This document shows positions 35,649 through 63,301 of a DNA stretch of 64,000 bases, piece by piece; positions within the stretch are counted from its first letter, which is position 1, and each line of letters starts with the position of its first letter. The stretch lies in IMG/VR virus record IMGVR_UViG_3300021960_000018; one strand, given 5' to 3'. The position numbers and the translations under genes are program-made. The stretch comes from a virus. The notes under the pieces are model-generated. The model saw only the letters and a list, made by a program, of their open reading frames with translations, searched no databases and was not told the DNA's origin.

Positions 35649-36209
35649 TCACTTTTTTAGTTGTTCGAATCCCCAGTTTTTCTCTCTGCATTGCCAACAC
35701 TCCCCACACTCTTCACCAGATGTTTTTCTGATGCAACTTCTCGTCTGTGATAGATCTATAGATAGTTGGTTAGCAAGATCGATAATGTGGTACTTGTATA
35801 GGTGTAAGAACGGGGTCTGCAATCTGGGAGTAGCAATGTTCCAGGGTCGACCTGGCTTGTCAGATGTGGCAAACTCTGGGAAGTATTCAAGGGGAGGAGT
35901 ATGGTTGATACCATAATATAGATTATCAATATCATAGTTTTTAAGAATATAATCTATAGCCGTGGGCACTCTTGCCCAATGTTCAGTAGTAAGTTCTGCG
36001 ATTTCGATTACGGGTTTGTTGGTAATAGCCTTTACTCTAGCGCTACTATCAAACCCGTCAGCTCTTGCAATATTAAAGATTATGGGATTATCAAGTAAAT
36101 GATACATGACAAAACTATCAATCCCGCCAGACATAATAATACCGGGCTTTTTATCGGTTGGGATATTGACTACCCTTTGATCCCATTCAGGTCCGCATAT
36201 ATATTGCAT
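35649..36209 (-). CDS. QueC-like PP-loop ATPase
   Basis: MSGGIDS, PFLHLYK..I, TRSC, CGECWQCRE; start MQYICG with SD GGAGG. Confidence 0.7.
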   Translation of the reverse strand: MQYICGPEWDQRVVNIPTDKKPGIIMSGGIDSFVMYHLLDNPIIFNIARADGFDSSARVKAITNKPVIEIAELTTEHWARVPTAIDYILKNYDIDNLYYGINHTPPLEYFPEFATSDKPGRPWNIATPRLQTPFLHLYKYHIIDLANQLSIDLSQTRSCIRKTSGEECGECWQCREKNWGFEQLKK

Positions 36210-36240
36210 AACAATCCTCCAAATCATAAGGTATATATCT

Positions 36241-37017
36241 ATGTATGACACTGTTGTTTCAGGATGTAGTTTTACTGCAGCTAATTTCAAGAGTCACGCA
36301 GCGCCTGATGTTGATACTAGCTGGCCAAAATGGCCTGAGTTATTAGGCAATGAAATGGGTTGGAGTGTATTAAATGTTGCCAAAAGCGGATACTCAAACG
36401 AAAGGATATGCGAAGAGGCCATAGAGGCTATAAAGGAAAATAGTAATATAAAAAGATGTATCATTGCTGCATCTGGATGGACTAGGTTTTCTCTTTTCGG
36501 ATATAATTTTATGTGGGATTTTATAATGCAAAAGGAAACCGGACTAGAGGTAATGAAATTGTGGGGTGATGAAGATCCAGAAACGAATCCTATCTATTTA
36601 AAACAAACTCGAGATTTAAAAGAAATAGTACGATTGGTGGAAGTTAAAGAAGAAAAAGCATATCGCCACAGTCTTAAAAAACAACTATACGCATTGGATT
36701 ATTTAAGATTAGTTTGTAAGCAGCGCAATATAGAATTATATTTCTTCCAGATGTTACCAATAGTTAATCATCTTTTTATTGATAGATATAATATAAAACA
36801 GCAGGTCCTGAATAGTTATGAATATAAAACTATGAAAAGGGAATGTAAATTTATTAAACGATACGATTCATTATATGAAAATAATATTATATTAATGAGT
36901 TTTTCAGATAAGAAATTATCTGATAAAGATTTAAGAGTTTCTGAATACGATCAGCATCCTAATAAATTATGTCATGAACTCATTGCACTATGGTTAAAGG
37001 AAGAAATAAATGGTTAA
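36241..37017 (+). CDS. SGNH-like protein
   Basis: GCSFT, WPELLG, SGYSNE, DQHPN..CH. Confidence 0.65.
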   Translation: MYDTVVSGCSFTAANFKSHAAPDVDTSWPKWPELLGNEMGWSVLNVAKSGYSNERICEEAIEAIKENSNIKRCIIAASGWTRFSLFGYNFMWDFIMQKETGLEVMKLWGDEDPETNPIYLKQTRDLKEIVRLVEVKEEKAYRHSLKKQLYALDYLRLVCKQRNIELYFFQMLPIVNHLFIDRYNIKQQVLNSYEYKTMKRECKFIKRYDSLYENNIILMSFSDKKLSDKDLRVSEYDQHPNKLCHELIALWLKEEING

Positions 37018-49749: not shown

Positions 49750-50328
49750 TCATATGTTGTCTAGGTTGATGATCCCCATTGGTGCAAATTCTTGATGATG
49801 TGACATTTCGGTAACCTTAGGTGCATTCTTACCTAATAGATTATCGAACAACTGTTTAACACCAAGAGTAAGATCATCTACTGAACCGTTATTATCGATA
49901 ATAAAATCAGCCATCCACGGTTCAATACTGTTGCTTTCTTTGCTTTCTTCTTTAACATGCTCTGAGCGATCGACCCAGATAGCAATGTCGAATACACCAG
50001 CATTCTTCATAAAGGTGAATTCACGCTTGTTACGAAGACCACAGTAAATATCAGACTCTTTAAAGATTTCGCGGCCAAGTCGCGTTGGGTCTTCGGCACA
50101 ATAATTTGCTATGAGAGTATACCATCTTTTACGGTGCTTATGTCTATCTTTAAAGCATTCTTCTACAGTCTTATAACCAAATTCATGCTTAAGGACCGGG
50201 AAGACGACATGTTCAGCACAGAATTCACTGGACGAACGGAAAGACATACCGTAGAACATAGCTAAAAGCTCTGCTACGGTGTCTTTACCGTGACGACCAT
50301 GACCAACCAATACAATTTTAGGATTCAT
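49750..50328 (-). CDS. Deoxynucleoside monophosphate kinase-like protein
   Basis: GHGRHGKDTVA, R...E, DFIIDNNGS. Confidence 0.7.
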   Translation of the reverse strand: MNPKIVLVGHGRHGKDTVAELLAMFYGMSFRSSSEFCAEHVVFPVLKHEFGYKTVEECFKDRHKHRKRWYTLIANYCAEDPTRLGREIFKESDIYCGLRNKREFTFMKNAGVFDIAIWVDRSEHVKEESKESNSIEPWMADFIIDNNGSVDDLTLGVKQLFDNLLGKNAPKVTEMSHHQEFAPMGIINLDNI

Positions 50329-50917: not shown

Positions 50918-51127
50918 TTATGCTAATTTTTTTATGCCCAGACACCAATTTTCAGCAGCATCTTCTACATATCGCATAGACTTACCGGGGAACTCCTCAG
51001 TGAAGAACCTACGTCCCTCATTGTCAAAATATTTGATATAAAACATTTCTTCTTTATAATTTACATGGATCTCACAATGTCCTAGAGATGTGTTGTTATT
51101 ATAGAAAGTCGAAATCTTTTTACCCAT
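50918..51127 (-). CDS. Conserved hypothetical protein
   Basis: KSMRYVEDAAENW motif. Confidence 0.65.
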   Translation of the reverse strand: MGKKISTFYNNNTSLGHCEIHVNYKEEMFYIKYFDNEGRRFFTEEFPGKSMRYVEDAAENWCLGIKKLA

Positions 51128-51782
51128 TTTGAATAAACTCCTCTATCATTGGGAAGCATCGCGCGATCGCGTACGCGCACTCTCTCGCGAGCTCGATGTG
51201 CTCTTTTTGTGTACCATTTCCAGACCTAAGTTCAATGTAATGTACCCAAGAGCGAAGGGTACCATTAACATAGAGACGGCTAACTGTGTTCCCCTCTGGT
51301 AGCACAGCGCGCGCCTGTTCCTTGGCAATCCCGGCCTGAATTGCCCATTTGTATGCCATTCGTGCTTCATGAATTATCTGTTCCTGTTTAATAATCCAAG
51401 CTTTTTTGATTTGTTCATCATCAGTTTCTATAGAATTCTGACGATTCTTTTCATCTTGCAGTCGTGCTTCTCTGACAACAAATTGTAGATCTTCGGTGGG
51501 GTCTGCATATCGCTGTGAGAATTCTTGGAAAGAAAAAGACCTATGCCGCAAAAACTGTCTAGCAATATCACGAGTGGTTTCAACCTCAAGTGTGGCAGAA
51601 GCCATTTCTAGTGGTGACCAATGTTTATGTTTGATCAGATAACGAATAAGCTTTTCGCCAGTTTCTGTATTTAGCTGATTCGAGGGATTTGATACACGAG
51701 CACAATAGGCAATAAGATCTTTTGCATTATCAATGCCGATCATATTAACCGGTTGGGTATAACCAATTAGTCTAGCCTTCAC
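51120..51782 (-). CDS. thyX: Flavin-dependent thymidylate synthase
   Basis: HWSPLE, RQFLRHRSFSFQEFSQRY, EQARAVLP. Confidence 0.96.
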   Translation of the reverse strand: MKARLIGYTQPVNMIGIDNAKDLIAYCARVSNPSNQLNTETGEKLIRYLIKHKHWSPLEMASATLEVETTRDIARQFLRHRSFSFQEFSQRYADPTEDLQFVVREARLQDEKNRQNSIETDDEQIKKAWIIKQEQIIHEARMAYKWAIQAGIAKEQARAVLPEGNTVSRLYVNGTLRSWVHYIELRSGNGTQKEHIELARECAYAIARCFPMIEEFIQNG

Positions 51783-53647: not shown

Positions 53648-53910
53648 GCTGAAGCATCTTCTAATAGTGAGAATAGTATATCTTTTGCCACGGACTGTAA
53701 ATCCCCATTTTCTTTATCCAGATCGGCAACCGGGGAACTTATAAGATCAAAATTAAATTTAAGATGATCATCAACTACCTTAAGGGTTGTATATTGGATA
53801 ACAGTCTCTACAAAGTCACCTGACAAAATGCGAATCTGCCAGAACTCATTCTCAGTTGGGACTAGTTCATAGTCAACGTTTTCATGCATCTTCATCATCA
53901 ATGATATCAT
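53644..53910 (-). CDS. gp40-like protein between uvsX and 41
   Basis: Syntenic position as in T4; W.IRIL.G.F.ETVIQY. Confidence 0.55.
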   Translation of the reverse strand: MISLMMKMHENVDYELVPTENEFWQIRILSGDFVETVIQYTTLKVVDDHLKFNFDLISSPVADLDKENGDLQSVAKDILFSLLEDASA

Positions 53911-54934
53911 CCATATTTACTGGTGCTGCATAACCAATCTTATATTGTTTTTCGATAAAAGATTTAAAGTCGGTATTAGCAAAGATAGGATCCCAGAACT
54001 CTTTTTCTAGAGTTTGATCGAGCCGTACTTTGCCGCCAACTTCACCAGTTTCCATATCAACCGTTGCATACCATCCATTCGAAGGTTTAGTAGCGTACCC
54101 ACCTGCAAGAGCCACGTCAAGAAGGCCAGAATAACGCTGAACACCACCGTCCCAGGAAACAGTAATAGGAATCTTAGACTTTTCCTTAACAAATCGAGAC
54201 TTTTCAACATTAATGACGAAGTTATACCCAACAATCTCTGTACCTTTCTTTTCCTGCTGACGACCGATGATCCAGATGTTATCGGCTGAATAATAAATGC
54301 CTGTACCACCAGACACAATCGCTTTCGGGAATAATCCCATCTCTTGATATGTATGGTTGACTGCAATCATAGGAATGTTCTTCATTGTCAGATAAGGTGT
54401 TGCCATGCGGAACAGGCCCTTAAGTGCTTTTGCTCTAGACATATCAGCAACTGATTTCTCGTTAATTGCATCCTCGAGTTCTTTCTTAGATGCAAGGTTA
54501 CCAATCGAGTCAATAACAATTACTACTTTATCACCACGCTCAATTCCTTCTAGTTGGTTAACTAGGTCAAACTTGAGTTGTTCTACGTCTGTGATAGGCG
54601 TATGCAATACCCGATCGGTATCGATACCAAACTGTTCGAAATAAGACTGTGGAGAACCGAACTCCGAATCATAGAAAAGAATAACCGAATCTTTATGCTG
54701 TTTCAGATATGCAGCCGCCATAAGCAGTGCGAACGACGTCTTGAAGTGTTTAGACGGACCAGCAAGAACTGTAAGACCCGAACTTAAACCGCCATCTACA
54801 GATCCAGACAGCGCAACGTTAATCATTGGAACATCGGTAGTAACCATATCCCTTTCATTAAAAAATTTAGATTCAGATAGAATAGATGTTGATTTAATCT
54901 TACTATTTTTCTGAAGTTTATCCATAATACTCAT
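53882..54934 (-). CDS. uvsX: UvsX RecA-like recombinase
   Basis: AGPSKHFKT, YDSEFG, DSIGNLAS, GGTGIYYSAD. Confidence 0.96.
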   Translation of the reverse strand: MSIMDKLQKNSKIKSTSILSESKFFNERDMVTTDVPMINVALSGSVDGGLSSGLTVLAGPSKHFKTSFALLMAAAYLKQHKDSVILFYDSEFGSPQSYFEQFGIDTDRVLHTPITDVEQLKFDLVNQLEGIERGDKVVIVIDSIGNLASKKELEDAINEKSVADMSRAKALKGLFRMATPYLTMKNIPMIAVNHTYQEMGLFPKAIVSGGTGIYYSADNIWIIGRQQEKKGTEIVGYNFVINVEKSRFVKEKSKIPITVSWDGGVQRYSGLLDVALAGGYATKPSNGWYATVDMETGEVGGKVRLDQTLEKEFWDPIFANTDFKSFIEKQYKIGYAAPVNMDDIIDDEDA

Positions 54935-55165: not shown

Positions 55166-55624
55166 ATGTACTATCTATATCTTAAGACCCATAATGTAAC
55201 CGGATTAAAGTATCTCGGTAAAACCAATTCAAATCCTTTTAAATATAAAGGTTCGGGTATTGTTTGGTCTCGACATTTACAAAAACATGGTAATGATGTT
55301 ACTACTACTGTTTTAAAAGAATGTCAAACCAATGAAGAAATACGTAGATGGGGCATTTATTATTCTGATAAATGGAATATCGTAGAATCTTCTGAATATG
55401 CAAATCTATGTCGGGAAGAAGGCCAGGGTGGTCATACTTATGATAAAAGAGGAAAATCCCGACCAAATGGATGTAAATTCCACAGAAGAGGTAGAAAACC
55501 TATTATAATAGACGATAAAGAATATATTAGTTCCCATTATGCCAGTAGCATATTAGACATACCCCAGTCAACCATCTCTTACAGAGTTAAGTCTGACTAT
55601 TGGCCAAATTACTCATTTGCGTAA
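55166..55624 (+). mobile_element. Free-standing GIY-YIG homing endonuclease (Seg-like)
   Basis: YYLYLKTHNVTGLKYLGKT, YKGSG, YANL..E.G.GG, C-terminal HTH-like domain; opposite strand to its neighbours. Confidence 0.8.
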
Positions 55625-56454
55625 GTGACATTTTGTTGTCTTTCCCTTTCATCTAAATCATATTGGGCTCTATACTCATTATTAATTCTAACACATTCTT
55701 CGACTAATGTAAACCTATCACTGTAATTAATTAGCGCATTTGTATCCTTTGGAAAACATGCTCCGCCATATCCTTGCTTACCGTCGAAGCCGGGAACTTT
55801 AGTATGTGAAGAACCAATACGAGGATCTGATGCAATGGCTTTCATAATGGTAGAATAATTGGCTCCAATATCTTGTGCAGCATCATATAGTTGATTAAAA
55901 AATGTAATCTTAGTAGCAAGGAATGCGTTAATCCCATATTTAACTAAAGAAGCTTCTGCCATACTCATAAAATGAAATGGTGCTGGATCGCATAGACTAT
56001 AATTTTCATATAGATCTTTTAATGCCCAGCATTCATCTACATCACCACCAATAATATGGAATTTAGGACGAACGAAATCTGCCTTGGCAAATCCCTCTGT
56101 AAGAAACTCAGGATTATATACAACCCCGCCAACGTCCCAATGTCGGATAATATCAGGAGTTACAGTTGATTTGATTACAATAATAGTGTTTATCAGCATA
56201 CTCTTAGTAAGGCGTTTCATTACCTTATTAAAGATAGTTGCGTCGATAGTGCCATCTTCCCCAAATGGTGTTGGTACACATACAAAAATAAAATGGCAGC
56301 TGCCGAGGATGCCAAGATTATTTTCTACTGTAGTATTATAGATTGGATCGATGATAACCTTTTCAACACGGTCATTGGTAAAGCCATAGTCAACAGCTTT
56401 ACCGACAAATCCGTGCCCAATAATAGCAATTCTTTTCAATTGATAAACTCCCAA
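55609..56454 (-). CDS. UDP-glucose/GDP-mannose 6-dehydrogenase family
   Basis: GHGFVG, VCVPTP, IKSTV, YNPEFL, GYGGACFPKD. Confidence 0.9.
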   Translation of the reverse strand: MGVYQLKRIAIIGHGFVGKAVDYGFTNDRVEKVIIDPIYNTTVENNLGILGSCHFIFVCVPTPFGEDGTIDATIFNKVMKRLTKSMLINTIIVIKSTVTPDIIRHWDVGGVVYNPEFLTEGFAKADFVRPKFHIIGGDVDECWALKDLYENYSLCDPAPFHFMSMAEASLVKYGINAFLATKITFFNQLYDAAQDIGANYSTIMKAIASDPRIGSSHTKVPGFDGKQGYGGACFPKDTNALINYSDRFTLVEECVRINNEYRAQYDLDERERQQNVTYANE

Positions 56455-56873
56455 TCAATCTGGGCTTCTTTGAACATTTCTAGAGTCTGTTCGACAGATT
56501 CCCGCCAACGTTCGTTGAAAGGATCCCCGTGCATAACAACACGATCAATACCTACTTGGATAATAGCCTTAGCGCATTCGCTGCAGCAGGGTAAGCCGTA
56601 GACGTACATGGTAGAACCTTTTAGGGATACACCATTGTAAGTAGCATTATAGATGCAGTTTGCTTCAGCGTGAACGATATATTTATACTTAATCTGACGA
56701 TCTGCATAACGTTCATTCATATCCAAAATGTGTCGTGGGAAGCCGTTATATCCTGTAGATAGTACTTCACCCTTCCCGCCTACCGCAATTGCACCGATTT
56801 TGCTGGAAGGATCTTTCGACCAAGTAGAAACTTCCTTGGCCAGGTTAATATAGCGGACGTCCCATTTATCCAT
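56436..56873 (-). CDS. cd: dCMP deaminase
   Basis: SKDPS, TGYNG, HAEAN, PCCSEC; start MDKWD. Confidence 0.9.
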   Translation of the reverse strand: MDKWDVRYINLAKEVSTWSKDPSSKIGAIAVGGKGEVLSTGYNGFPRHILDMNERYADRQIKYKYIVHAEANCIYNATYNGVSLKGSTMYVYGLPCCSECAKAIIQVGIDRVVMHGDPFNERWRESVEQTLEMFKEAQIDWEFIN

Positions 56874-58161
56874 AAAGTTCACTCCAGATTTTTTCATTGG
56901 TTTGGCGTTGTTGCATAGGATCTGTGCGGATTGCATCAGTCTTAAGAGGATGTTTGTCCCGCGAAAGAATCTTTTGTGGGACAAGATCTTTGAAAGCTTC
57001 TTTAAGAACTTTCTTTTCGCCATTACGTTGCTCGTACGGCGTGCGTAGCGCGTGCGTGACGACCTTAGGCGACAGGAATGGAGCACGAAGTTCAATAGTG
57101 CTATGCATCATCGTACGGTCCAATTTAGGTAGATGATAATAAGGCAATTCACACCAAATATCCGAAGCTTGGCTATCATACTCTTTTGCACGACGATATC
57201 CACCGAATAGTTCGTCAGCACCATCCCCGGTTAGGACTGCATGGAAACCGAGGTCATGTAGTTTTCCTGCCATAGCAATTTGTGGTTTGGTAGAACCAAG
57301 ATCAACTGGAGACTGATGTATAGCAACGCTATCCATGTCACTAACGCCGTGAAGTTGTACTTCGACCATATCTTTTGCAACCAATTTAGCATAGTCTTCT
57401 TCTCCATTATCGACGTGAATGGCTGTAACATCACGACCGAGGATATCAGTAATAATCTTATAAATGATGGTAGAATCTAGGCCGCCAGATAGTAGAATAG
57501 ACAGTTCACGCTGACCGCCAAGGCGTCGTTCGACTGATTCGATTAGGTCAGTGCGCAGGTCAGTGCACGAGGTCATTTTCCAATTCCAGTACTTGTGCAC
57601 TTGCCCTTTATGAATAAGGCATCCTGGAGGAAGTTGTTTAATTTCATTCCAGGGAGTACCACCAGTTGGATCATAGCCCCATTTCATAGTATTTGAATGG
57701 AACAGTTCGTTACGGGTGACAGGACCAAATTCTTTTAGTACATCTGGTTCAGAAGCCATAGCATCTACGTCAGTACGGTAATACAAAGGCTTAATACTAA
57801 GATGATCGGTAACACCAAACAGTGCGCCGTCCATAACAGTTACGTATGTCCAGAAGCCATCGAATCGATTAAACTCACGAATACCTTTGATCCAAAAGGT
57901 TTGCCATGCACAATCGATATCATTATCGAAGCCAAAATCTTCGTAGTTAAAGATTTCACCGACAAATAGTGAGTTACTACCAGGACGAGGCTGAATAGCG
58001 ACTTCAGGATCTAGATTAACAAATGGTAGACTTACGTGGCCGAGCTGAATAGGACCATTACGTTCATAGCCTTTATAACCCGGTAGTCCTCGATAAGCAA
58101 TTTTATCCAGTAATGATTCTACATCAACATCTGTATTGATTGCTGCAATGAAACCACACAT
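56866..58161 (-). CDS. Asparagine-synthetase-B-like amidotransferase
   Basis: N-terminal MCG, GEIFN, KPLYY, LSGGLDS, TGDGADELFGGY, ELRAPFL. Confidence 0.9.
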   Translation of the reverse strand: MCGFIAAINTDVDVESLLDKIAYRGLPGYKGYERNGPIQLGHVSLPFVNLDPEVAIQPRPGSNSLFVGEIFNYEDFGFDNDIDCAWQTFWIKGIREFNRFDGFWTYVTVMDGALFGVTDHLSIKPLYYRTDVDAMASEPDVLKEFGPVTRNELFHSNTMKWGYDPTGGTPWNEIKQLPPGCLIHKGQVHKYWNWKMTSCTDLRTDLIESVERRLGGQRELSILLSGGLDSTIIYKIITDILGRDVTAIHVDNGEEDYAKLVAKDMVEVQLHGVSDMDSVAIHQSPVDLGSTKPQIAMAGKLHDLGFHAVLTGDGADELFGGYRRAKEYDSQASDIWCELPYYHLPKLDRTMMHSTIELRAPFLSPKVVTHALRTPYEQRNGEKKVLKEAFKDLVPQKILSRDKHPLKTDAIRTDPMQQRQTNEKIWSELYG

Positions 58162-58940
58162 TACACTGCTGCTCCTTCGAAGTTATCCCAATTGTATTCT
58201 TGAATGCCGGCAAGCTGTCTTAGTGCATATCGATCATTCTCGAAACAATGTAAACTAGTTGAGCTAAAATGTAAATACCCTGGTTTGGCATTTATACCAC
58301 TTTTTTCAATCATCCACATAGTTAGACGATTAGCAAAGTATAGGTCGTTGTGTAGGTGACGCACCACGTCGCAAGAGCGCATGTGATATGAACAGTGTAG
58401 TTCACCGCCGCGTTCCATAAAGTGCCAACCGAATGAACAGGGTACACGCTCACCCTGATTAGCAGCTACGATATCCTCGGGAAACCACATAGGAACATAA
58501 CACTGACGGGTAGTACTGTCCTTTTTAAGCAATTCAACGGCATCGCCAAGGTTGCCAGTCTTGAAGCGAATACCGTCCATGCTTGGTGCCCACATACGTT
58601 CGGGATACGAATGAGAGAACGCTTGTTGGCCCTCAGACATATATTTGTCTGTATCCTTGAGCCACATAGTGTGGGATGGGGGAGGATTAAGTGGTACACC
58701 GCCGGTACGTTCGTCAAAGTGTACGTCGGCCCAGGGTTGTGTAGCGCTTAGACCGTCTGATGCTTCTTTGGCATCAGTATACATTGGTGCTACTAGGTCA
58801 GCGTGAAGAATCTCCAGGAAGGTAGGCGGAGAGGTCGTACCCTGCCAGCTTCCCGTCTGAATCGTATACCCCTGTTTGTACAACAAAGTCCTTAAGTTTT
58901 TCAAGCCCTCGCTCAGATTTCTCCCGCTTACTCTGTTCAC
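58161..58940 (-). CDS. Thymidylate-synthase homolog with dCMP-type specificity residue (gp42-like)
   Basis: TRQ, catalytic PC, MRSCDVVRHLHND (Asp at the E. coli Asn177 position), SLH. Confidence 0.8.
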   Translation of the reverse strand: MNRVSGRNLSEGLKNLRTLLYKQGYTIQTGSWQGTTSPPTFLEILHADLVAPMYTDAKEASDGLSATQPWADVHFDERTGGVPLNPPPSHTMWLKDTDKYMSEGQQAFSHSYPERMWAPSMDGIRFKTGNLGDAVELLKKDSTTRQCYVPMWFPEDIVAANQGERVPCSFGWHFMERGGELHCSYHMRSCDVVRHLHNDLYFANRLTMWMIEKSGINAKPGYLHFSSTSLHCFENDRYALRQLAGIQEYNWDNFEGAAV

Positions 58941-59361
58941 TTTCGTATACCCTTTCTCTCAGGTTTGAAGAAGAGAACCTGTGGTCTCTCTTGTTATAAT
59001 AAATGTCAATACCAAGTGCGCGGCATTCTTCTTTACCGGTAAAGTCACGGGATCGATATTCATCACCAATAATACGGATATCAATAGGATACATCTCTAA
59101 GATATCCATAACGTCAGACTCTGTCTGATATGGGATAATTTCATCTACGTAACTAACAGCGGCAAGTTGGGAATGCCGCTCCACTAGGGTTTGTACTGGT
59201 GGATTCTTGTACATTCTATCATAACTTGGGTCCACTTGTAAACCACAAATTAGATGGTCGCACACACTTTTTGCTTCACGGAGCATGGCTATATGCCCCG
59301 CGTGAAGTAAATCAAAAGTGCTAAAGGTAATACCTACGATAGGCTTTTTAGGATGCTCCAT
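58798..59361 (-). CDS. Glycerol-3-phosphate cytidylyltransferase-like (TagD/RfaE-type)
   Basis: TFDLLHAGH, YVDEIIPY, RDHRFSSS. Confidence 0.88.
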   Translation of the reverse strand: MEHPKKPIVGITFSTFDLLHAGHIAMLREAKSVCDHLICGLQVDPSYDRMYKNPPVQTLVERHSQLAAVSYVDEIIPYQTESDVMDILEMYPIDIRIIGDEYRSRDFTGKEECRALGIDIYYNKRDHRFSSSNLRERVYESEQSKREKSERGLEKLKDFVVQTGVYDSDGKLAGYDLSAYLPGDSSR

Positions 59362-60065
59362 GTTTCTTCCCAACTCTTTACATGATGTGCATGGCTGCCA
59401 GAATTTGCAACTTCTAGCATGAGCGTATAATCATTTCCCCCTGGCTCCATTTTGTCTCCAAAGAAATGAATGTTATCATATGGGGAAAATTTATGAATGA
59501 TTTGGGATTTATCATATCCCTTTTCGACAATATCTATACCGGTTTCTCCTGCGACTTGGCAATCATAGGCAGGAAAATACGTATTCAAATAATCAGCAAT
59601 TGCTTGTCTTTCGTAATGAACGGCATCCCATTCTTTATATTCTTCCCGTTCATCGATAGTACATCCACGACCGATAATAGAAAAATTAACTAGGCCCGGT
59701 CTTACATCTACATGATTCCCGGTTTTAACTGGGAACTGACTTATCTGGAGGAAGTCGTCAAATGCGTCAAACATTTCCATAGGAAGTTCCATTTTACGAA
59801 CTTCAAGTCTTCTGTCTTTGTGCCAAATATCATTACCTGCGCACTGGAAACAGATCTGCATTGAATTATATAATCCGGAGCCGATTTGTTCTAAGGTTTT
59901 CGGACGGTCAGATCCTGTTACAATACAACAAAAATGATTGTTAGCAAAATCAATCATCCAGTCTCTAAACTTAGGATCAATTGTATGTCTACTATATGTG
60001 AGAGTTCCGTCTACGTCGAAAACGAACTTATTAAGGTCTGGTTTTGATTTTACATCAAGCTGCAT
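59334..60065 (-). CDS. HAD-type phosphomannomutase (eukaryotic PMM-like)
   Basis: FDVDGTLT, VTGSD, NFSIIGR, FFGDKMEPGGNDY. Confidence 0.85.
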   Translation of the reverse strand: MQLDVKSKPDLNKFVFDVDGTLTYSRHTIDPKFRDWMIDFANNHFCCIVTGSDRPKTLEQIGSGLYNSMQICFQCAGNDIWHKDRRLEVRKMELPMEMFDAFDDFLQISQFPVKTGNHVDVRPGLVNFSIIGRGCTIDEREEYKEWDAVHYERQAIADYLNTYFPAYDCQVAGETGIDIVEKGYDKSQIIHKFSPYDNIHFFGDKMEPGGNDYTLMLEVANSGSHAHHVKSWEETWSILKSLS

Positions 60066-60414
60066 TCTCTGCTACTTTATCCATATCAAAATTAACACTC
60101 ACGCCGCAGCCACAAGAAGATTGCGCATTCGGATTTGAAATCTCAAATGTTGATCCAATAATGGATTTTGTATAATCAATAGTGGAACCAAGTAGAAACA
60201 TTAAACTTGTTGATCCTACTACAAAATTACCATTTTCACAGGGGATCAGAATATCGTTCTTTTCTATTTCAGATTCGGTCATTGTACCCCATTCATATTC
60301 GAACCCGGCACATCCTCCGCCCTTGATATTCAAACTAATCGCATGACAGTTATTTTCTTGACAAAGCTTGCCGATTTGGCTATTAGCGGATGGGGTTAAA
60401 AATACTAGAGACAT
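60055..60414 (-). CDS. HesB/IscA A-type Fe-S carrier
   Basis: GGGCAGFEY, NPNAQSSCGCGVS. Confidence 0.92.
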   Translation of the reverse strand: MSLVFLTPSANSQIGKLCQENNCHAISLNIKGGGCAGFEYEWGTMTESEIEKNDILIPCENGNFVVGSTSLMFLLGSTIDYTKSIIGSTFEISNPNAQSSCGCGVSVNFDMDKVAENAA

Positions 60415-60590
60415 TTAAGTTCCTTTATAGTCTTCTACGTCTTGAACGCAGACCATACCTTCCCAGGTTTTATTGATTGCAATTTCAGCCTCGTGCATAT
60501 CGTATAAACATTCTTCAAATGTTTCATATTCACCTAAATCTGTTACGATAACAGTCCCTTGAATTAACTGAATCCAAAGCAACATCCACA

Positions 60591-60932
60591 TTATTTATGT
60601 CCTACAGTTTCTCTTTTAATATCGTTATGGTTAAACTCGGCCCAATAAAGTTCAAATGCTACACCATCTTCAATACACTCAAACTGGTGATAGACACCAG
60701 GCTTGACTTTTGTATAGTCACCAGGGCCTAGTACAGTCTCATCCACCAGATCATAATCTTTTTGCCATACACGAATAAGCATACGACCTGATTCTACATA
60801 GAAGCCATTCCACTTATACTCATGAAGGTGTTTAGAACACACACCACCAGCTTCCATCTCAATTCGATGAAACTCGAGCACACCATTAGCTTCAATTAGT
60901 TCAGTCGTACCCCACACTTTTCCTGCGATCAT
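60591..60932 (-). CDS. Cupin (sugar isomerase-like)
   Basis: KVWG, CSKHLH, PGVYHQF. Confidence 0.7.
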   Translation of the reverse strand: MIAGKVWGTTELIEANGVLEFHRIEMEAGGVCSKHLHEYKWNGFYVESGRMLIRVWQKDYDLVDETVLGPGDYTKVKPGVYHQFECIEDGVAFELYWAEFNHNDIKRETVGHK

Positions 60933-61264
60933 TTCCCATCACCTTTCAAACATTTGCGAACATGCTCGATCTTATAATCACGATCCCAACCCTTTAAATA
61001 GTCGTTGTCACGATCAAAGAATGTCAGCATTTCATCTTCAGTGCATTCGTAGTGATCTACGATCTGTTCACCAAGCCATTCCTGTGAAAACTCTTCACAC
61101 TCTTGCATAGTTACTGTATCTAGTGCCCAATCAACTAGATCTTTTTCGGTTGGGGTAACATCTGTATTCAACTTACTCAAATCATCTTTGTGCATTACAT
61201 AACGCATACGATGTGTTGAAATAGTTGTTACTACAATATAATCATTGTTCGCCATAGATATCAA
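60929..61264 (-). CDS. Hypothetical protein
   Basis: EFSQEWLGEQI motif; coupled ORF. Confidence 0.6.
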   Translation of the reverse strand: MISMANNDYIVVTTISTHRMRYVMHKDDLSKLNTDVTPTEKDLVDWALDTVTMQECEEFSQEWLGEQIVDHYECTEDEMLTFFDRDNDYLKGWDRDYKIEHVRKCLKGDGK

Positions 61265-61481
61265 TCACCCTGTTCAATGCATGAATATCTTGGACCAGGC
61301 ATTCCCAGTCTTCTTCTTCGTGTAGCAAAAGCTCACGATTAGCTTTAATATTATCAAGTCGTTCACGTTCCATTGTATACATGTCGCGAGACTCTTTCAA
61401 ACGGTGTACAACCATAGCATCCATAAGATCCCAAACCGCTTCGTGCTCAAGTGCTTTTGCCAATAAATCAATTACTTTCAT
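61242..61481 (-). CDS. Hypothetical protein
   Basis: Coupled ORF. Confidence 0.55.
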   Translation of the reverse strand: MKVIDLLAKALEHEAVWDLMDAMVVHRLKESRDMYTMERERLDNIKANRELLLHEEEDWECLVQDIHALNRVIDIYGEQ

Positions 61482-61638
61482 TCATCCATATCCACTATAT
61501 CAAGAACTTTGTTATATTCAATCATATATCCACAAGCACGAAGGAAGTTCTGAAACTGTTCAAGCACTTCATCAAGTGTGCTATCATCATGGACTTCTAC
61601 CTCAATCTTAATCCCGTGTTCATTCCATCTACTAAATC

Positions 61639-61821
61639 TCATTCATCTACCTCCCAATAACGACAGTAGAAGTGTTTAGGCATTTTATCAATCTCGAATT
61701 GTGGATAGCCTTCGCTCAACAGCCAAGGGATAATACTTTCCCCCTCTGGATAATCTGCAGGCAACGGTTTAGGAAATCCATACTTCCATCCACTAGGTGG
61801 ATCTACCATTGTTCTTTTCAT
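61639..61821 (-). CDS. Hypothetical protein (DPPSGWKYGFPK)
   Basis: Start MKRTMVD; SD GAGG. Confidence 0.6.
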   Translation of the reverse strand: MKRTMVDPPSGWKYGFPKPLPADYPEGESIIPWLLSEGYPQFEIDKMPKHFYCRYWEVDE

Positions 61822-62485
61822 TCCACTTCCTCGCATCCTCTGGTGTATTAATCTCAATACCATTAAAGGTTACTGGTAAGACACCAATATCATGTCCATT
61901 TTTTAGCCAACGTAGTTGTTCTAATTTTTCGACGCGTTCTTCTTTTGTACCAGTCATGTACGGATACAATTGTAACACATCTTTGTGGTATCCGTAAACC
62001 CCCAAATGCCAATCTCCGTATCCAGTCATTCCTCTGCCGAACCACAAACATTTATCCCCAGCTCTAACCAGTTTAACCGAATTAGGATTATTTTGTTCTT
62101 CTTCCGGCATCAATGCACAAACCGTAGAGACTTTATAATAATTTAACATCTTTTCGGTTTTTTGGATCATCTCTAAAGTAACATCCGGCATATCACCTTG
62201 TACGTTAATAAATCGATCATAATGAGATAATAATGCAGATTTATTAACAGCGCCGGCACACCGCTCAGTCCCATTTTCATATGGATCTGTATCTACAATT
62301 AATTTATTATCTGGGAATAAATCTATAATTAAAGGATGGTCAGTCAACACATAGGTATCAAGACCGGCCTCTTTACATGCATTATATACTCTGACGATCA
62401 TATGGTGATCACCAAGCATAGTTAGAGGTTTACCTGGAAATCGAGTTGATCCGTATCTAGCCGGAATGAGGATAGCGGTCGCCAT
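61793..62485 (-). CDS. kdsB: CMP-Kdo synthetase
   Basis: IPARYGSTRFPGKPL, GTER, NVQGD, HLGVY, EKLEQLRWL. Confidence 0.92.
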   Translation of the reverse strand: MATAILIPARYGSTRFPGKPLTMLGDHHMIVRVYNACKEAGLDTYVLTDHPLIIDLFPDNKLIVDTDPYENGTERCAGAVNKSALLSHYDRFINVQGDMPDVTLEMIQKTEKMLNYYKVSTVCALMPEEEQNNPNSVKLVRAGDKCLWFGRGMTGYGDWHLGVYGYHKDVLQLYPYMTGTKEERVEKLEQLRWLKNGHDIGVLPVTFNGIEINTPEDARKWNEKNNGRST

Positions 62486-63301
62486 TTACCAATTCCTATA
62501 ATTTCTATCAATAGGTGCTGTTTCTTTTGGTGTATAATGGCATCTATCGATACCATCAATCACCTTTTGAAAATCCATAAGTTTAACCATATTAGGTCCG
62601 TCGGATGGAGCATTTTCAGGATCAGGATGTACTTCTAAAAAGAAGTTTTTAATACCCAAAGCAGAGCCTGCACGACATAGCCCAGGAACATAATCTCGAT
62701 TGCCGCCACTAGAACTGCCTTGCCCACCTGGTTTTTGAACGGAGTGCGTGGCGTCCAAAACAATAGGACAATCAAAGTTATTAAGCATATAGTCAAGGCC
62801 GGTGAAATCAACCACCAAATTATTATATCCAAAACTAGTACCCCTTTCAGTAATCCAAATTTCTTTTGCGCCTTCAGTTTTTGACAAAATGCCTGCAACA
62901 TCCCATGGTGCTAGGAACTGTCCCTTTTTAATATTAACGATCTTATTGCTTTCTACAGCTGCACGAATTAAATCAGTTTGCCGGCATAGAAAGGCTGGGA
63001 TCTGAATAACATCAACACTATCTCTAAAATGATTTCGAATGAACATAACATCTTCGACACTATGCACATCTGTAAGAATCTTAAGATCCGGAATGTTCTT
63101 TTTCATCTCCCTGAAATCAAACATTGTTTGGGGTAAACCTTTACCCCGTTTTCCATTCATAGAGGTGCGATTAGCTTTGTCATAGCTGGCTTTAAAAACA
63201 TATTCAAATCCAAACTGTTCGCAATCCCATTTGCAAGCTTTTGCGATCTCTAAAGATTGTTCTAATGATTCGTGCTGACAGGGACCGGCAATAATACGCA
63301 T
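62486..63301 (-). CDS. kdsA: Kdo-8-phosphate synthase (metal-dependent type)
   Basis: IAGPC, KASYDKANRTS, PAFLCRQTD, KKGQFLAP, DATHSVQ.PGG, SDG. Confidence 0.95.
   Translation of the reverse strand: MRIIAGPCQHESLEQSLEIAKACKWDCEQFGFEYVFKASYDKANRTSMNGKRGKGLPQTMFDFREMKKNIPDLKILTDVHSVEDVMFIRNHFRDSVDVIQIPAFLCRQTDLIRAAVESNKIVNIKKGQFLAPWDVAGILSKTEGAKEIWITERGTSFGYNNLVVDFTGLDYMLNNFDCPIVLDATHSVQKPGGQGSSSGGNRDYVPGLCRAGSALGIKNFFLEVHPDPENAPSDGPNMVKLMDFQKVIDGIDRCHYTPKETAPIDRNYRNW

Follow-up and report, generated by a model that had tools for sequence, protein, structure and literature searches.

IMG/VR record IMGVR_UViG_3300021960_000018 holds the 64-kb stretch of DNA analysed here (hereafter the window), which originates from an uncultured marine or estuarine T4-like phage whose UvsX is 77% identical to that of C48C1 (Kyanoviridae). 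Upstream of uvsX lie a gene for a protein with the thymidylate synthase (TS) fold and, directly behind it, a gene for a protein related to asparagine synthetase B (AsnB), and it is this pair that concerns us. Read 5' to 3' on the minus strand, the genes succeed one another as follows: KdsA, KdsB, a cupin, an IscA-like protein, a PMM-type HAD protein, an HldC/TagD-like nucleotidyltransferase, the TS-fold protein, the AsnB-like protein, deoxycytidylate (dCMP) deaminase, a short protein resembling UDP-glucose 6-dehydrogenase (Ugd), uvsX, gp41 helicase, ThyX, a cell-wall hydrolase and a dNMP kinase-like protein; a gene for a GIY-YIG endonuclease has the opposite, plus orientation (Table 1). Since the T4 order is 43-imm-42-bgt-segA-uvsX-40-41, the TS-fold gene occupies the place of gene 42, and the GIY-YIG gene beside uvsX stands where T4 has segA. 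The preliminary description of this DNA had placed the block at the T4 gene 42 locus; the comparison of gene orders agrees with this, and all the genes it listed were recovered on the minus strand at the same or nearly the same positions. It had also noted that the phage already possesses ThyX, which is indeed the case, so that the TS-fold gene is not needed for dTMP synthesis. The genes are tightly packed: the TS stop codon and the AsnB-like start codon share one base (GTGTAATGTGT, junction TAATG), the start of the deaminase gene overlaps the AsnB-like stop by 8 nt, the deaminase and Ugd-like genes meet in an overlapping TTGA, and GGAG is found upstream of each of these three junctions.

The TS-fold protein scores 31.9 bits against the Pfam family Thymidylat_synt (cut-off 24.3), with the catalytic Cys168 present, and 19-30 bits against the NCBIfam TS equivalogs, whose cut-offs range from 174.55 to 405; its pairwise similarity to T4 gp42 is marginal (E 0.001). 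Three independent alignments, with ThyA structures, T4 gp42 and E. coli ThyA, concur in placing Cys168 on the catalytic Cys and the Asp of RSCDVVRHLHND (Asp199) on Asn177 of ThyA and Asp179 of gp42, which bears out the earlier reading of this gene as a second TS homologue with Asp at the Asn177 position. Asp at this position has been tied to the use of dCMP (PMC8670742). According to the published product rules, Leu at ThyA position 143 goes with methyl transfer and Asp or Glu with hydroxymethyl transfer, and the D169N substitution marks the flavin-dependent 5-hydroxy-dCMP synthases (Lee et al. 2026, PMC13326640). Compared with the described enzymes, (i) Asn177, expected of a dUMP-methylating ThyA, is replaced by Asp199, which is invariant in 24 aligned relatives; (ii) the gp42-type hydroxymethylases share this Asp, but the acidic residue associated with them at L143 is Arg165 here, invariant in all 24 relatives including ones at only 22% identity; (iii) the D169N change of the 5-hydroxy-dCMP synthases is absent, the corresponding Asp191 being invariant in the same set; (iv) methylases of the Xp12/PaMx74 type also have Asp177 and, at L143, a hydrophobic residue as in ThyA, but the PaMx74 type combines these with a long ThyA-like C-terminus and a neighbouring gene for dihydrofolate reductase (DHFR), whereas the C-terminus is short here, as in gp42, and no DHFR is encoded in the complete relative G001 (IMGVR_UViG_3300007511_000004, 146.5 kb). 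Further changes relative to ThyA affect His147 (Ser), Ala142 (Glu) and Gly173 (His) in most members. With Arg at L143, Asp169 kept, a short C-terminus and no DHFR in G001, the protein is, judging by its residues, a dCMP-type enzyme without a clean fit to any of the four product classes described so far.

The AlphaFold2 model of the TS-fold protein (pLDDT 80) has AfhB structures as its best fold matches and fits HY126 AfhB, ThyA and MilA about equally (TM-score about 0.6). AfhB belongs with RB69 gp48 and DLP3 gp80 to the 5-hydroxy-dCMP synthases (PMC13326640). These TS-fold proteins, which act on dCMP, resemble the present enzyme in that their genes occupy the gene 42 position in T4-like phages, close to genes for sugar nucleotides; they differ from it in the D169N substitution. 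Proteins labelled 'thymidylate synthases', 30-42% identical, are the closest cultured relatives of the TS-fold protein; they belong to actinophages (Muddy, Zuko, Gordonia phages), Pseudomonas phage Almagne and Yersinia phage P744, the modules of which read Tmk, dUTPase/MazG, an unassigned gene, TS, dCMP deaminase and PolA. Note that in the actinophages, Almagne and P744 a conserved protein without a Pfam family is encoded directly upstream of the TS gene and overlaps it (L037 2030-2923, L032 2904-3965, L031 4213-5001, L030 4208-5041); it may be the tailoring partner in those phages.

The second protein of the pair, 431 residues long, begins with MCG (Cys2) and contains the PP-loop motif SGGLDS (S225-S230), and the AsnB-like gene to which the TS gene was said to be coupled is intact. 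No exception to Cys2, the PP-loop or the K429 and K449 equivalents was seen in 56 diverse members, the most remote of them 29% identical, so that the protein has probably kept the capacity both to hydrolyse glutamine and to adenylate. The predicted fold is the two-domain fold of AsnB (pLDDT 96, TM-score 0.77 to 1ct9). All these features are shared with E. coli AsnB, with which the protein is nevertheless only ~20% identical; it is also shorter (431 vs 554 residues) and scores 155.7 against the AsnB equivalog TIGR01536, below the cut-off of 267.1. The residues that line the substrate sites of AsnB (the T322/T323/R325 segment, D384, E348, R49 and N74) are altered. In the aspartate site, E348 is replaced by Asp and D384 by His, and the T322-R325 segment is shortened with loss of its Arg; in the glutamine site, R49 has become Ser and N74 Val. 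In addition, an insert, KWGYDP, is specific to this family. The score below the cut-off, these substitutions and the insert indicate that, strictly speaking, the protein is no asparagine synthetase.

The AsnB-like clade numbers ~180 representatives at E<=1e-30 in a 50%-identity cluster library and comprises hundreds of 90%-identity clusters from marine metagenomes, with contigs of 130-150 kb that resemble whole T4-like phage genomes. It appears to be virus-only: a search through one genome for each prokaryotic species gave, as best cellular homologues, canonical AsnB-like proteins of 22-30% identity. Among cultured phages, tblastn with the AsnB-like protein gave only matches of <=27% identity and megablast with the block gave no match. 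Fused, long forms of the protein were also looked for; none turned up, a null result of little weight.

The linkage between the two genes was followed in three sets of loci, obtained by an AsnB-anchored search of IMG/VR (23 loci), a TS-anchored search (60 loci, 55 of them informative, i.e. with >2 kb downstream) and a uvsX-anchored search (80 close relatives). Wherever an AsnB-anchored locus extends upstream, the TS gene is there, and the deaminase gene follows AsnB in all these loci. Conversely, the AsnB-like gene comes next after TS in 54 of the 55 informative TS loci and is followed by dCMP deaminase, the gap between TS and AsnB being mostly -43 to +23 nt, with inserts in a few loci. The sole exception, a phage with a lambda-type portal (L150), has the order PRA-PH, x, TS, dCMP deaminase. 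A variant locus (L133, 321-6128) reads PRA-PH, DUF1599 (Nmad1, 'nucleotide modification associated domain 1'), TS, S-adenosylhomocysteine hydrolase, N6/N4 DNA methyltransferase, AsnB-like, dCMP deaminase; the hydrolase hints at heavy use of S-adenosylmethionine by that phage. Among the uvsX-anchored relatives, TS and AsnB only ever occur together, and their adjacency with overlapping stop and start codons holds almost perfectly across T4-like phages that are 47-91% divergent. The deaminase gene always follows AsnB in T4-like relatives, but is found without the pair as well.

Pelagic T4-like contigs from TARA have PRA-PH ... TS, AsnB, a small MazG, dCMP deaminase, AhpC, S21 and uvsX, without Ugd. 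In four of these contigs (L025-L028), the genes of ribosomal protein S21 and the AhpC peroxiredoxin lie between the deaminase and uvsX; for two of them, gene calling did not give an entire TS gene, which may reflect a frameshift or an assembly error. In unrelated PolA phages, whose AsnB-like proteins are 33-37% identical to that of the window, the pair is part of operons for nucleotide metabolism, in the order small open reading frame (ORF; 169-190 aa), AsnB-like, dUTPase_2, (methyltransferase), TS, (ThyX), dCMP deaminase and PolA. The small ORF gave a faint thymidylate-kinase match at one locus only; we considered whether these ORFs are homologues of the dNMP kinase-like protein of the window, and found no homology. 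As for whole genomes, G001 encodes PRA-PH, TS, AsnB-like, dCMP deaminase and the dNMP kinase-like protein, and the equally complete C48C1 lacks all five (including any PRA-PH/MazG), with a Ugd-like gene and an epimerase gene at the same locus. Co-occurrence of the dNMP kinase-like gene with AsnB is weak, the contigs being thinly sampled for it. Altogether, this co-occurrence across the three anchored sets, the TARA contigs, the PolA phages and the whole genomes defines a robust unit that consists of TS and the AsnB-like protein, set among genes of the pyrimidine pool, and that is smaller than first proposed. The test of TS-AsnB adjacency across related phages that the preliminary description had called for is thus positive: some 55 viral contigs anchored on TS and 23 anchored on AsnB show it, as do unrelated phage lineages. 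Our literature searches found no published description of this pairing.

Table 1. Features of the TS/AsnB locus and its surroundings in the 64-kb window.
Feature	Position	Strand	Remarks
KdsA	62486-63301	-	glycan-precursor neighbour
KdsB	61793-62485	-	glycan-precursor neighbour
Cupin, small	60591-60932	-	neighbour
IscA/HesB-like Fe-S protein	60055-60414	-	upstream neighbour
PMM-type HAD-IIB phosphomutase/phosphatase	59334-60065	-	neighbour, outside core
HldC/TagD-like nucleotidyltransferase	58798-59373	-	neighbour, outside core; ORF tail overlaps TS gene by 143 nt
TS-fold enzyme, dCMP type (predicted)	58161-58940	-	core; Pfam and PHROG matches, alignments, AlphaFold2 model and fold search
AsnB-family glutamine amidotransferase / PP-loop ATP-amidoligase (predicted)	56866-58161	-	core; apparently virus-only clade
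dCMP deaminase, short, 145 aa, ComEB-like	56436-56873	-	start = ATG at 56873; Pfam and PHROG matches
Short Ugd-like NAD dehydrogenase	55609-56454	-	neighbour, outside core; likely start TTG at 56439
GIY-YIG / I-TevI-like homing endonuclease	55166-55624	+	between Ugd and uvsX; overlaps Ugd stop
uvsX	53882-54934	-	positional anchor
ThyX	51120-51782	-	motif RHRSFSFQEFS
dNMP kinase-like protein, tentative accessory	49750-50328	-	sub-threshold Pfam match and PHROG 139

Several genes that the preliminary description had attached to the pair fared differently. A dCMP deaminase gene does follow AsnB, as it stated, and so does a dehydrogenase gene; what had been called a UDP-sugar 6-dehydrogenase is a short form of such an enzyme. 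The Ugd-like protein (~276-281 aa in the window) has a Rossmann motif and the catalytic Cys in GGACFPKD, but it matches only the N-terminal and central domains of the family, lacks the C-terminal UDP-binding domain PF03720, and scores 151.3 against TIGR03026 (cut-off 189.8); it therefore does not have the three domains of a UDP-glucose 6-dehydrogenase, and its substrate may not be a UDP-sugar. It is natively short, since its C48C1 homologue ends at the same place, which also rules out truncation by the neighbouring homing endonuclease. The proteins encoded in the window (55609-56454) and in L001 (8082-9041) measure ~280-320 aa. Homologues 26-46% identical occur in Bacillus phage SP-15, Campylobacter phages CP220/CPt10, Listeria phage LIS04, Microbacterium phages (beside a glycosyltransferase) and cyanophages, with known or suspected DNA or glycan modifications. 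Upstream of TS, the PMM gene and the reported 'cytidylyltransferase' gene are both present, but the latter encodes an HldC/TagD-like nucleotidyltransferase and not clearly a cytidylyltransferase. Its ORF runs 143 nt (58798-58940) into the TS gene in another frame; because its homologue ends near residue 142 in several relatives, just ahead of the TS start, the 48-aa tail may be a read-through extension. The gene at 49750 exists as well, its designation as a dNMP kinase resting on the matches given in Table 1.

These sugar genes do not travel with TS and AsnB. Among the uvsX-anchored relatives, all four of Ugd, the nucleotidyltransferase, PMM and the cupin are often found where TS and AsnB are missing. 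They are also absent from many loci that do have the pair, which for Ugd, the nucleotidyltransferase and PMM include those of the TARA and PolA lineages. The cupin, being common without TS and AsnB, was rejected as a module member. Given the adjacent KdsA and KdsB genes, the set formed by KdsA, KdsB, the cupin, the IscA/HesB-like protein, PMM, the HldC-like protein and Ugd (60055-63301 and the block) looks like a set for KDO (3-deoxy-D-manno-octulosonate), heptose and uronate precursors carried by a phage. Ugd, PMM, the nucleotidyltransferase and the Kds genes thus form a separate, more widespread sugar set that is not part of the TS/AsnB unit. The preliminary description had named co-segregation of AsnB and Ugd with the glycan island as an outcome that would count against its model; this is what we see for Ugd, but not for AsnB. 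We also considered whether the Ugd-like dehydrogenase could oxidize a 5-hydroxymethyl group to the 5-carboxyl on which AsnB would act, and rejected this as a general mechanism because about half of the TS/AsnB loci have no Ugd and relatives that lack the pair do carry it.

Two further observations lie apart from this locus. In the window, a 213-aa protein encoded at 35649-36290 (minus strand) gives a partial match to the PP-loop protein QueC (E 6e-10, C-terminal part only), followed by a DUF932 protein and an ORF weakly resembling uracil-DNA glycosylase; no QueD, QueE or FolE was found near it. In G001, uvsX is split (L004 9562-12249), with residues 1-211 and 213-345 encoded ~1.65 kb apart, which suggests an intron, an intein or an endonuclease insertion.

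How does the pair compare with known systems? The T4 pathway, in which gp56, gp42, gp1 and cd lead to 5-hydroxymethyl-dC, later glucosylated by a-gt and b-gt, has its TS-fold enzyme at the same place between DNA polymerase and uvsX, with the same Asp at the base-reading position, a catalytic Cys and a short C-terminus. It also includes an NTP pyrophosphatase (found here in relatives), dCMP deaminase and a dNMP kinase counterpart, and a GIY-YIG gene beside uvsX. It differs from the window in having Asp/Glu where the present enzyme has Arg at L143, and in tailoring by glycosyltransferases where an AsnB-family amidotransferase stands here, with dTMP supplied by ThyX. The MetaGPA modules, which mark phages with C5-modified cytosine in coastal and marine viromes, consist of a TS with Asp177 within 3 kb of dCMP deaminase, and PRA-PH nearby (PMC8670742; bioRxiv 10.1101/2024.12.05.627091); likewise, TS and deaminase lie 1.3 kb apart in the window, and both G001 and the TARA relatives encode PRA-PH. 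No PRA-PH pyrophosphatase was found inside the window, its syntenic place lying past the window end. Neither the text of the MetaGPA papers nor the part of the supplement consulted mentions a partner of the AsnB type.

The closest precedent for the chemistry, and the only described case of an AsnB homologue at work in modifying phage DNA, is the Cmo system of Synechococcus phage S-B43, in which CmoA and CmoX make 5-carboxymethylcytosine and CmoY ligates glycine to it, yielding a glycine amide (PMC12783734). In that system, a homologue of asparagine synthetase acts on the C5 substituent of cytosine, forming an amide at a carboxyl handle in phage DNA at the expense of ATP, and the same paper mentions an uncharacterized ligase cluster with a glutamine-hydrolysing domain. 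SpCmoY, however, is a single-domain protein devoid of a glutaminase domain and a remote relative of the AsnB-like protein (hhalign 89.6%, 20% identity). Moreover, the Cmo handle derives from carboxy-S-adenosylmethionine and is installed on DNA by a homologue of C5-methyltransferases, whereas the partner of the AsnB-like protein is a TS-fold enzyme encoded among nucleotide-pool genes. Profiles PF00145 (C5-methyltransferase) and TIGR00740 (CmoA) had no match in the complete G001 and were both found in S-B43, the positive control, which carries CmoA, CmoX and CmoY. Because G001 lacks CmoA and any C5-methyltransferase and SpCmoY is only remotely related, the module does not appear to be a Cmo system, though by analogy it may work like one.

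Taking these observations together, we lean, if only slightly, towards the view that TS and the AsnB-like protein form a single unit for modification of cytosine at C5. The module would probably carry out a pre-replicative modification of the T4 type, its new element being the obligate pair of a TS-fold enzyme and a glutamine- and ATP-dependent amidoligase of the AsnB family, and this pair probably builds an undescribed nitrogen-bearing cytosine for phage DNA. While the identities of the genes, their diagnostic residues and the strict linkage of TS with AsnB across lineages are observed, the substrate, the product and the action of the AsnB-like protein on nucleotides as opposed to DNA are what we infer in the following scheme: (i) a MazG/PRA-PH pyrophosphatase, known from the relatives and here expected past the window edge, would convert dCTP to dCMP; (ii) the TS-fold enzyme would activate C5 of dCMP through Cys168 and add a substituent derived from a one-carbon unit; (iii) the AsnB-like protein would adenylate an oxygen function of this substituent, which would be replaced by ammonia released in the Cys1 glutaminase domain and tunnelled to the second site; (iv) the dNMP kinase-like protein would pass the product on towards the polymerase; (v) dTMP would be supplied by dCMP deaminase and ThyX.

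As to the product, every characterized enzyme of the AsnB family, to our knowledge, adenylates a carboxylate and not an alcohol. For this reason we tentatively rank first a primary amide formed from a carboxylate, i.e. a 5-carbamoyl- or 5-carbamoylmethyl-type dC. The invariant Arg of the TS pocket could then be a carboxylate-binding residue, by analogy with an Arg of CmoX. A bolder version, which we regard as rather unlikely, would credit the TS-fold enzyme with a new chemistry: at C5 of dCMP, this Arg would bind an electrophile that bears a carboxyl group (CO2 or a carboxylated one-carbon unit), and ATP-dependent amidation would pull the otherwise unfavourable step, so that 5-carbamoyl- or 5-carbamoylmethyl-dC would replace cytosine in many marine T4-like phages and in several unrelated phage lineages.

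Several points weigh against such an amidating unit. No source of a carboxylate is evident, as neither CmoA nor CmoX is encoded in G001 and no oxidase co-varies with the pair. The TS residues D169 and W80 are kept, suggesting ordinary methylene-folate chemistry that yields methyl or hydroxymethyl rather than carboxyl. Actinophages and one lambda-like marine contig have this TS subfamily but no AsnB, so its product can be an end point by itself, and the deaminase with PRA-PH is also found without TS and AsnB among the uvsX-anchored relatives. Glutamine-site residues R49 and N74 are substituted in the AsnB-like protein. Finally, co-variation of the whole module comes down to only two complete genomes, G001 and C48C1.

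The carboxylate problem disappears if the product is 5-aminomethyl-dC, the runner-up, which we nonetheless consider improbable. Here the TS-fold enzyme would be a gp42-like dCMP hydroxymethylase, and the AsnB-like protein would O-adenylate the hydroxymethyl group for displacement by glutamine-derived ammonia, or else the exocyclic methylene intermediate would be trapped by the ammonia itself. A C-terminus as short as that of gp42 and a polar residue in place of L143 speak against a methylase (PMC13326640); no DHFR is encoded in G001, and hypermodification of thymidine provides a case in which activated 5-hydroxymethylpyrimidines are aminated (PMC8989533). The invariant PP-loop speaks against pure delivery of ammonia. 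Adenylation of an alcohol would also depart from the habit of the AsnB family as we know it.

Other PP-loop enzymes, namely GMP synthetase, TilS and ThiI, adenylate base carbonyls, which brings in re-amination at C4: the AsnB-like protein would adenylate the C4 carbonyl of dTMP, dUMP or 5-hydroxymethyl-dUMP to give a dCMP derivative, reversing the deaminase and balancing the pools of a phage with fully replaced cytosine. The constant position of its gene beside dCMP deaminase (beside dUTPase_2 in the PolA phages) and the replaced aspartate-site residues would suit this role. On the other hand, it would set up a futile cycle with the deaminase, the obligate link is to TS whereas the deaminase is often present without AsnB, and we know of no AsnB-family member that aminates pyrimidine nucleotides at C4. 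We give it little credence.

No greater chance is given to the possibility that the phage simply replaces cytosine by 5-methyl- or 5-hydroxymethylcytosine, as in the published MetaGPA type, and that the AsnB-like gene is an auxiliary metabolic gene, for asparagine or another amide, riding in an early operon. Modules of TS(Asp), deaminase and PRA-PH without AsnB are published, and the same TS subfamily occurs alone; yet a passenger gene fits poorly with the near-perfect adjacency and overlapping codons across such divergent T4-like phages, with the recurrence of the pairing in unrelated lineages and an apparently virus-only clade, and with altered substrate-site residues and a score below the family cut-off. 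The favoured amide, the aminomethyl product, C4 re-amination and a metabolic role cannot be told apart by sequence alone.

Least probable is the uronamide model of the preliminary description, in which PMM and the nucleotidyltransferase would supply Ugd, the uronic acid that Ugd makes would be attached to hydroxymethylcytosine, and AsnB would turn it into the uronamide: although sugar-nucleotide genes adjoin the TS homologue and serve DNA glycosylation in RB69, DLP3 and HY126 (PMC13326640), SP-15, with a glucuronolactone in its DNA, has Ugd-like genes (PMC5977210), and a Ugd-like gene follows the deaminase in about half of the T4-like TS/AsnB loci, the independent distribution of the sugar genes beside KdsA/KdsB, the presence of Ugd and an epimerase in C48C1, which has no TS, AsnB, deaminase or MazG, the missing UDP-binding domain and the failure to identify any DNA glycosyltransferase near the block do not support it.

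If the pair does make a new base, this base would be abundant, given the size of the AsnB-like clade in marine metagenomes. Besides the glycosylation and carbamoylation known for TS-derived cytosines, there would then be a third way to tailor them, by glutamine-dependent amidation or amination. The cutting, sequencing and base-calling of marine viromes would be affected, and the labelling of nucleic acids might gain new enzymes. For the question of how the TS fold has diversified, the invariant Arg offers a concrete handle that is open to test, standing as it does at the very position that separates methyl from hydroxymethyl transfer.

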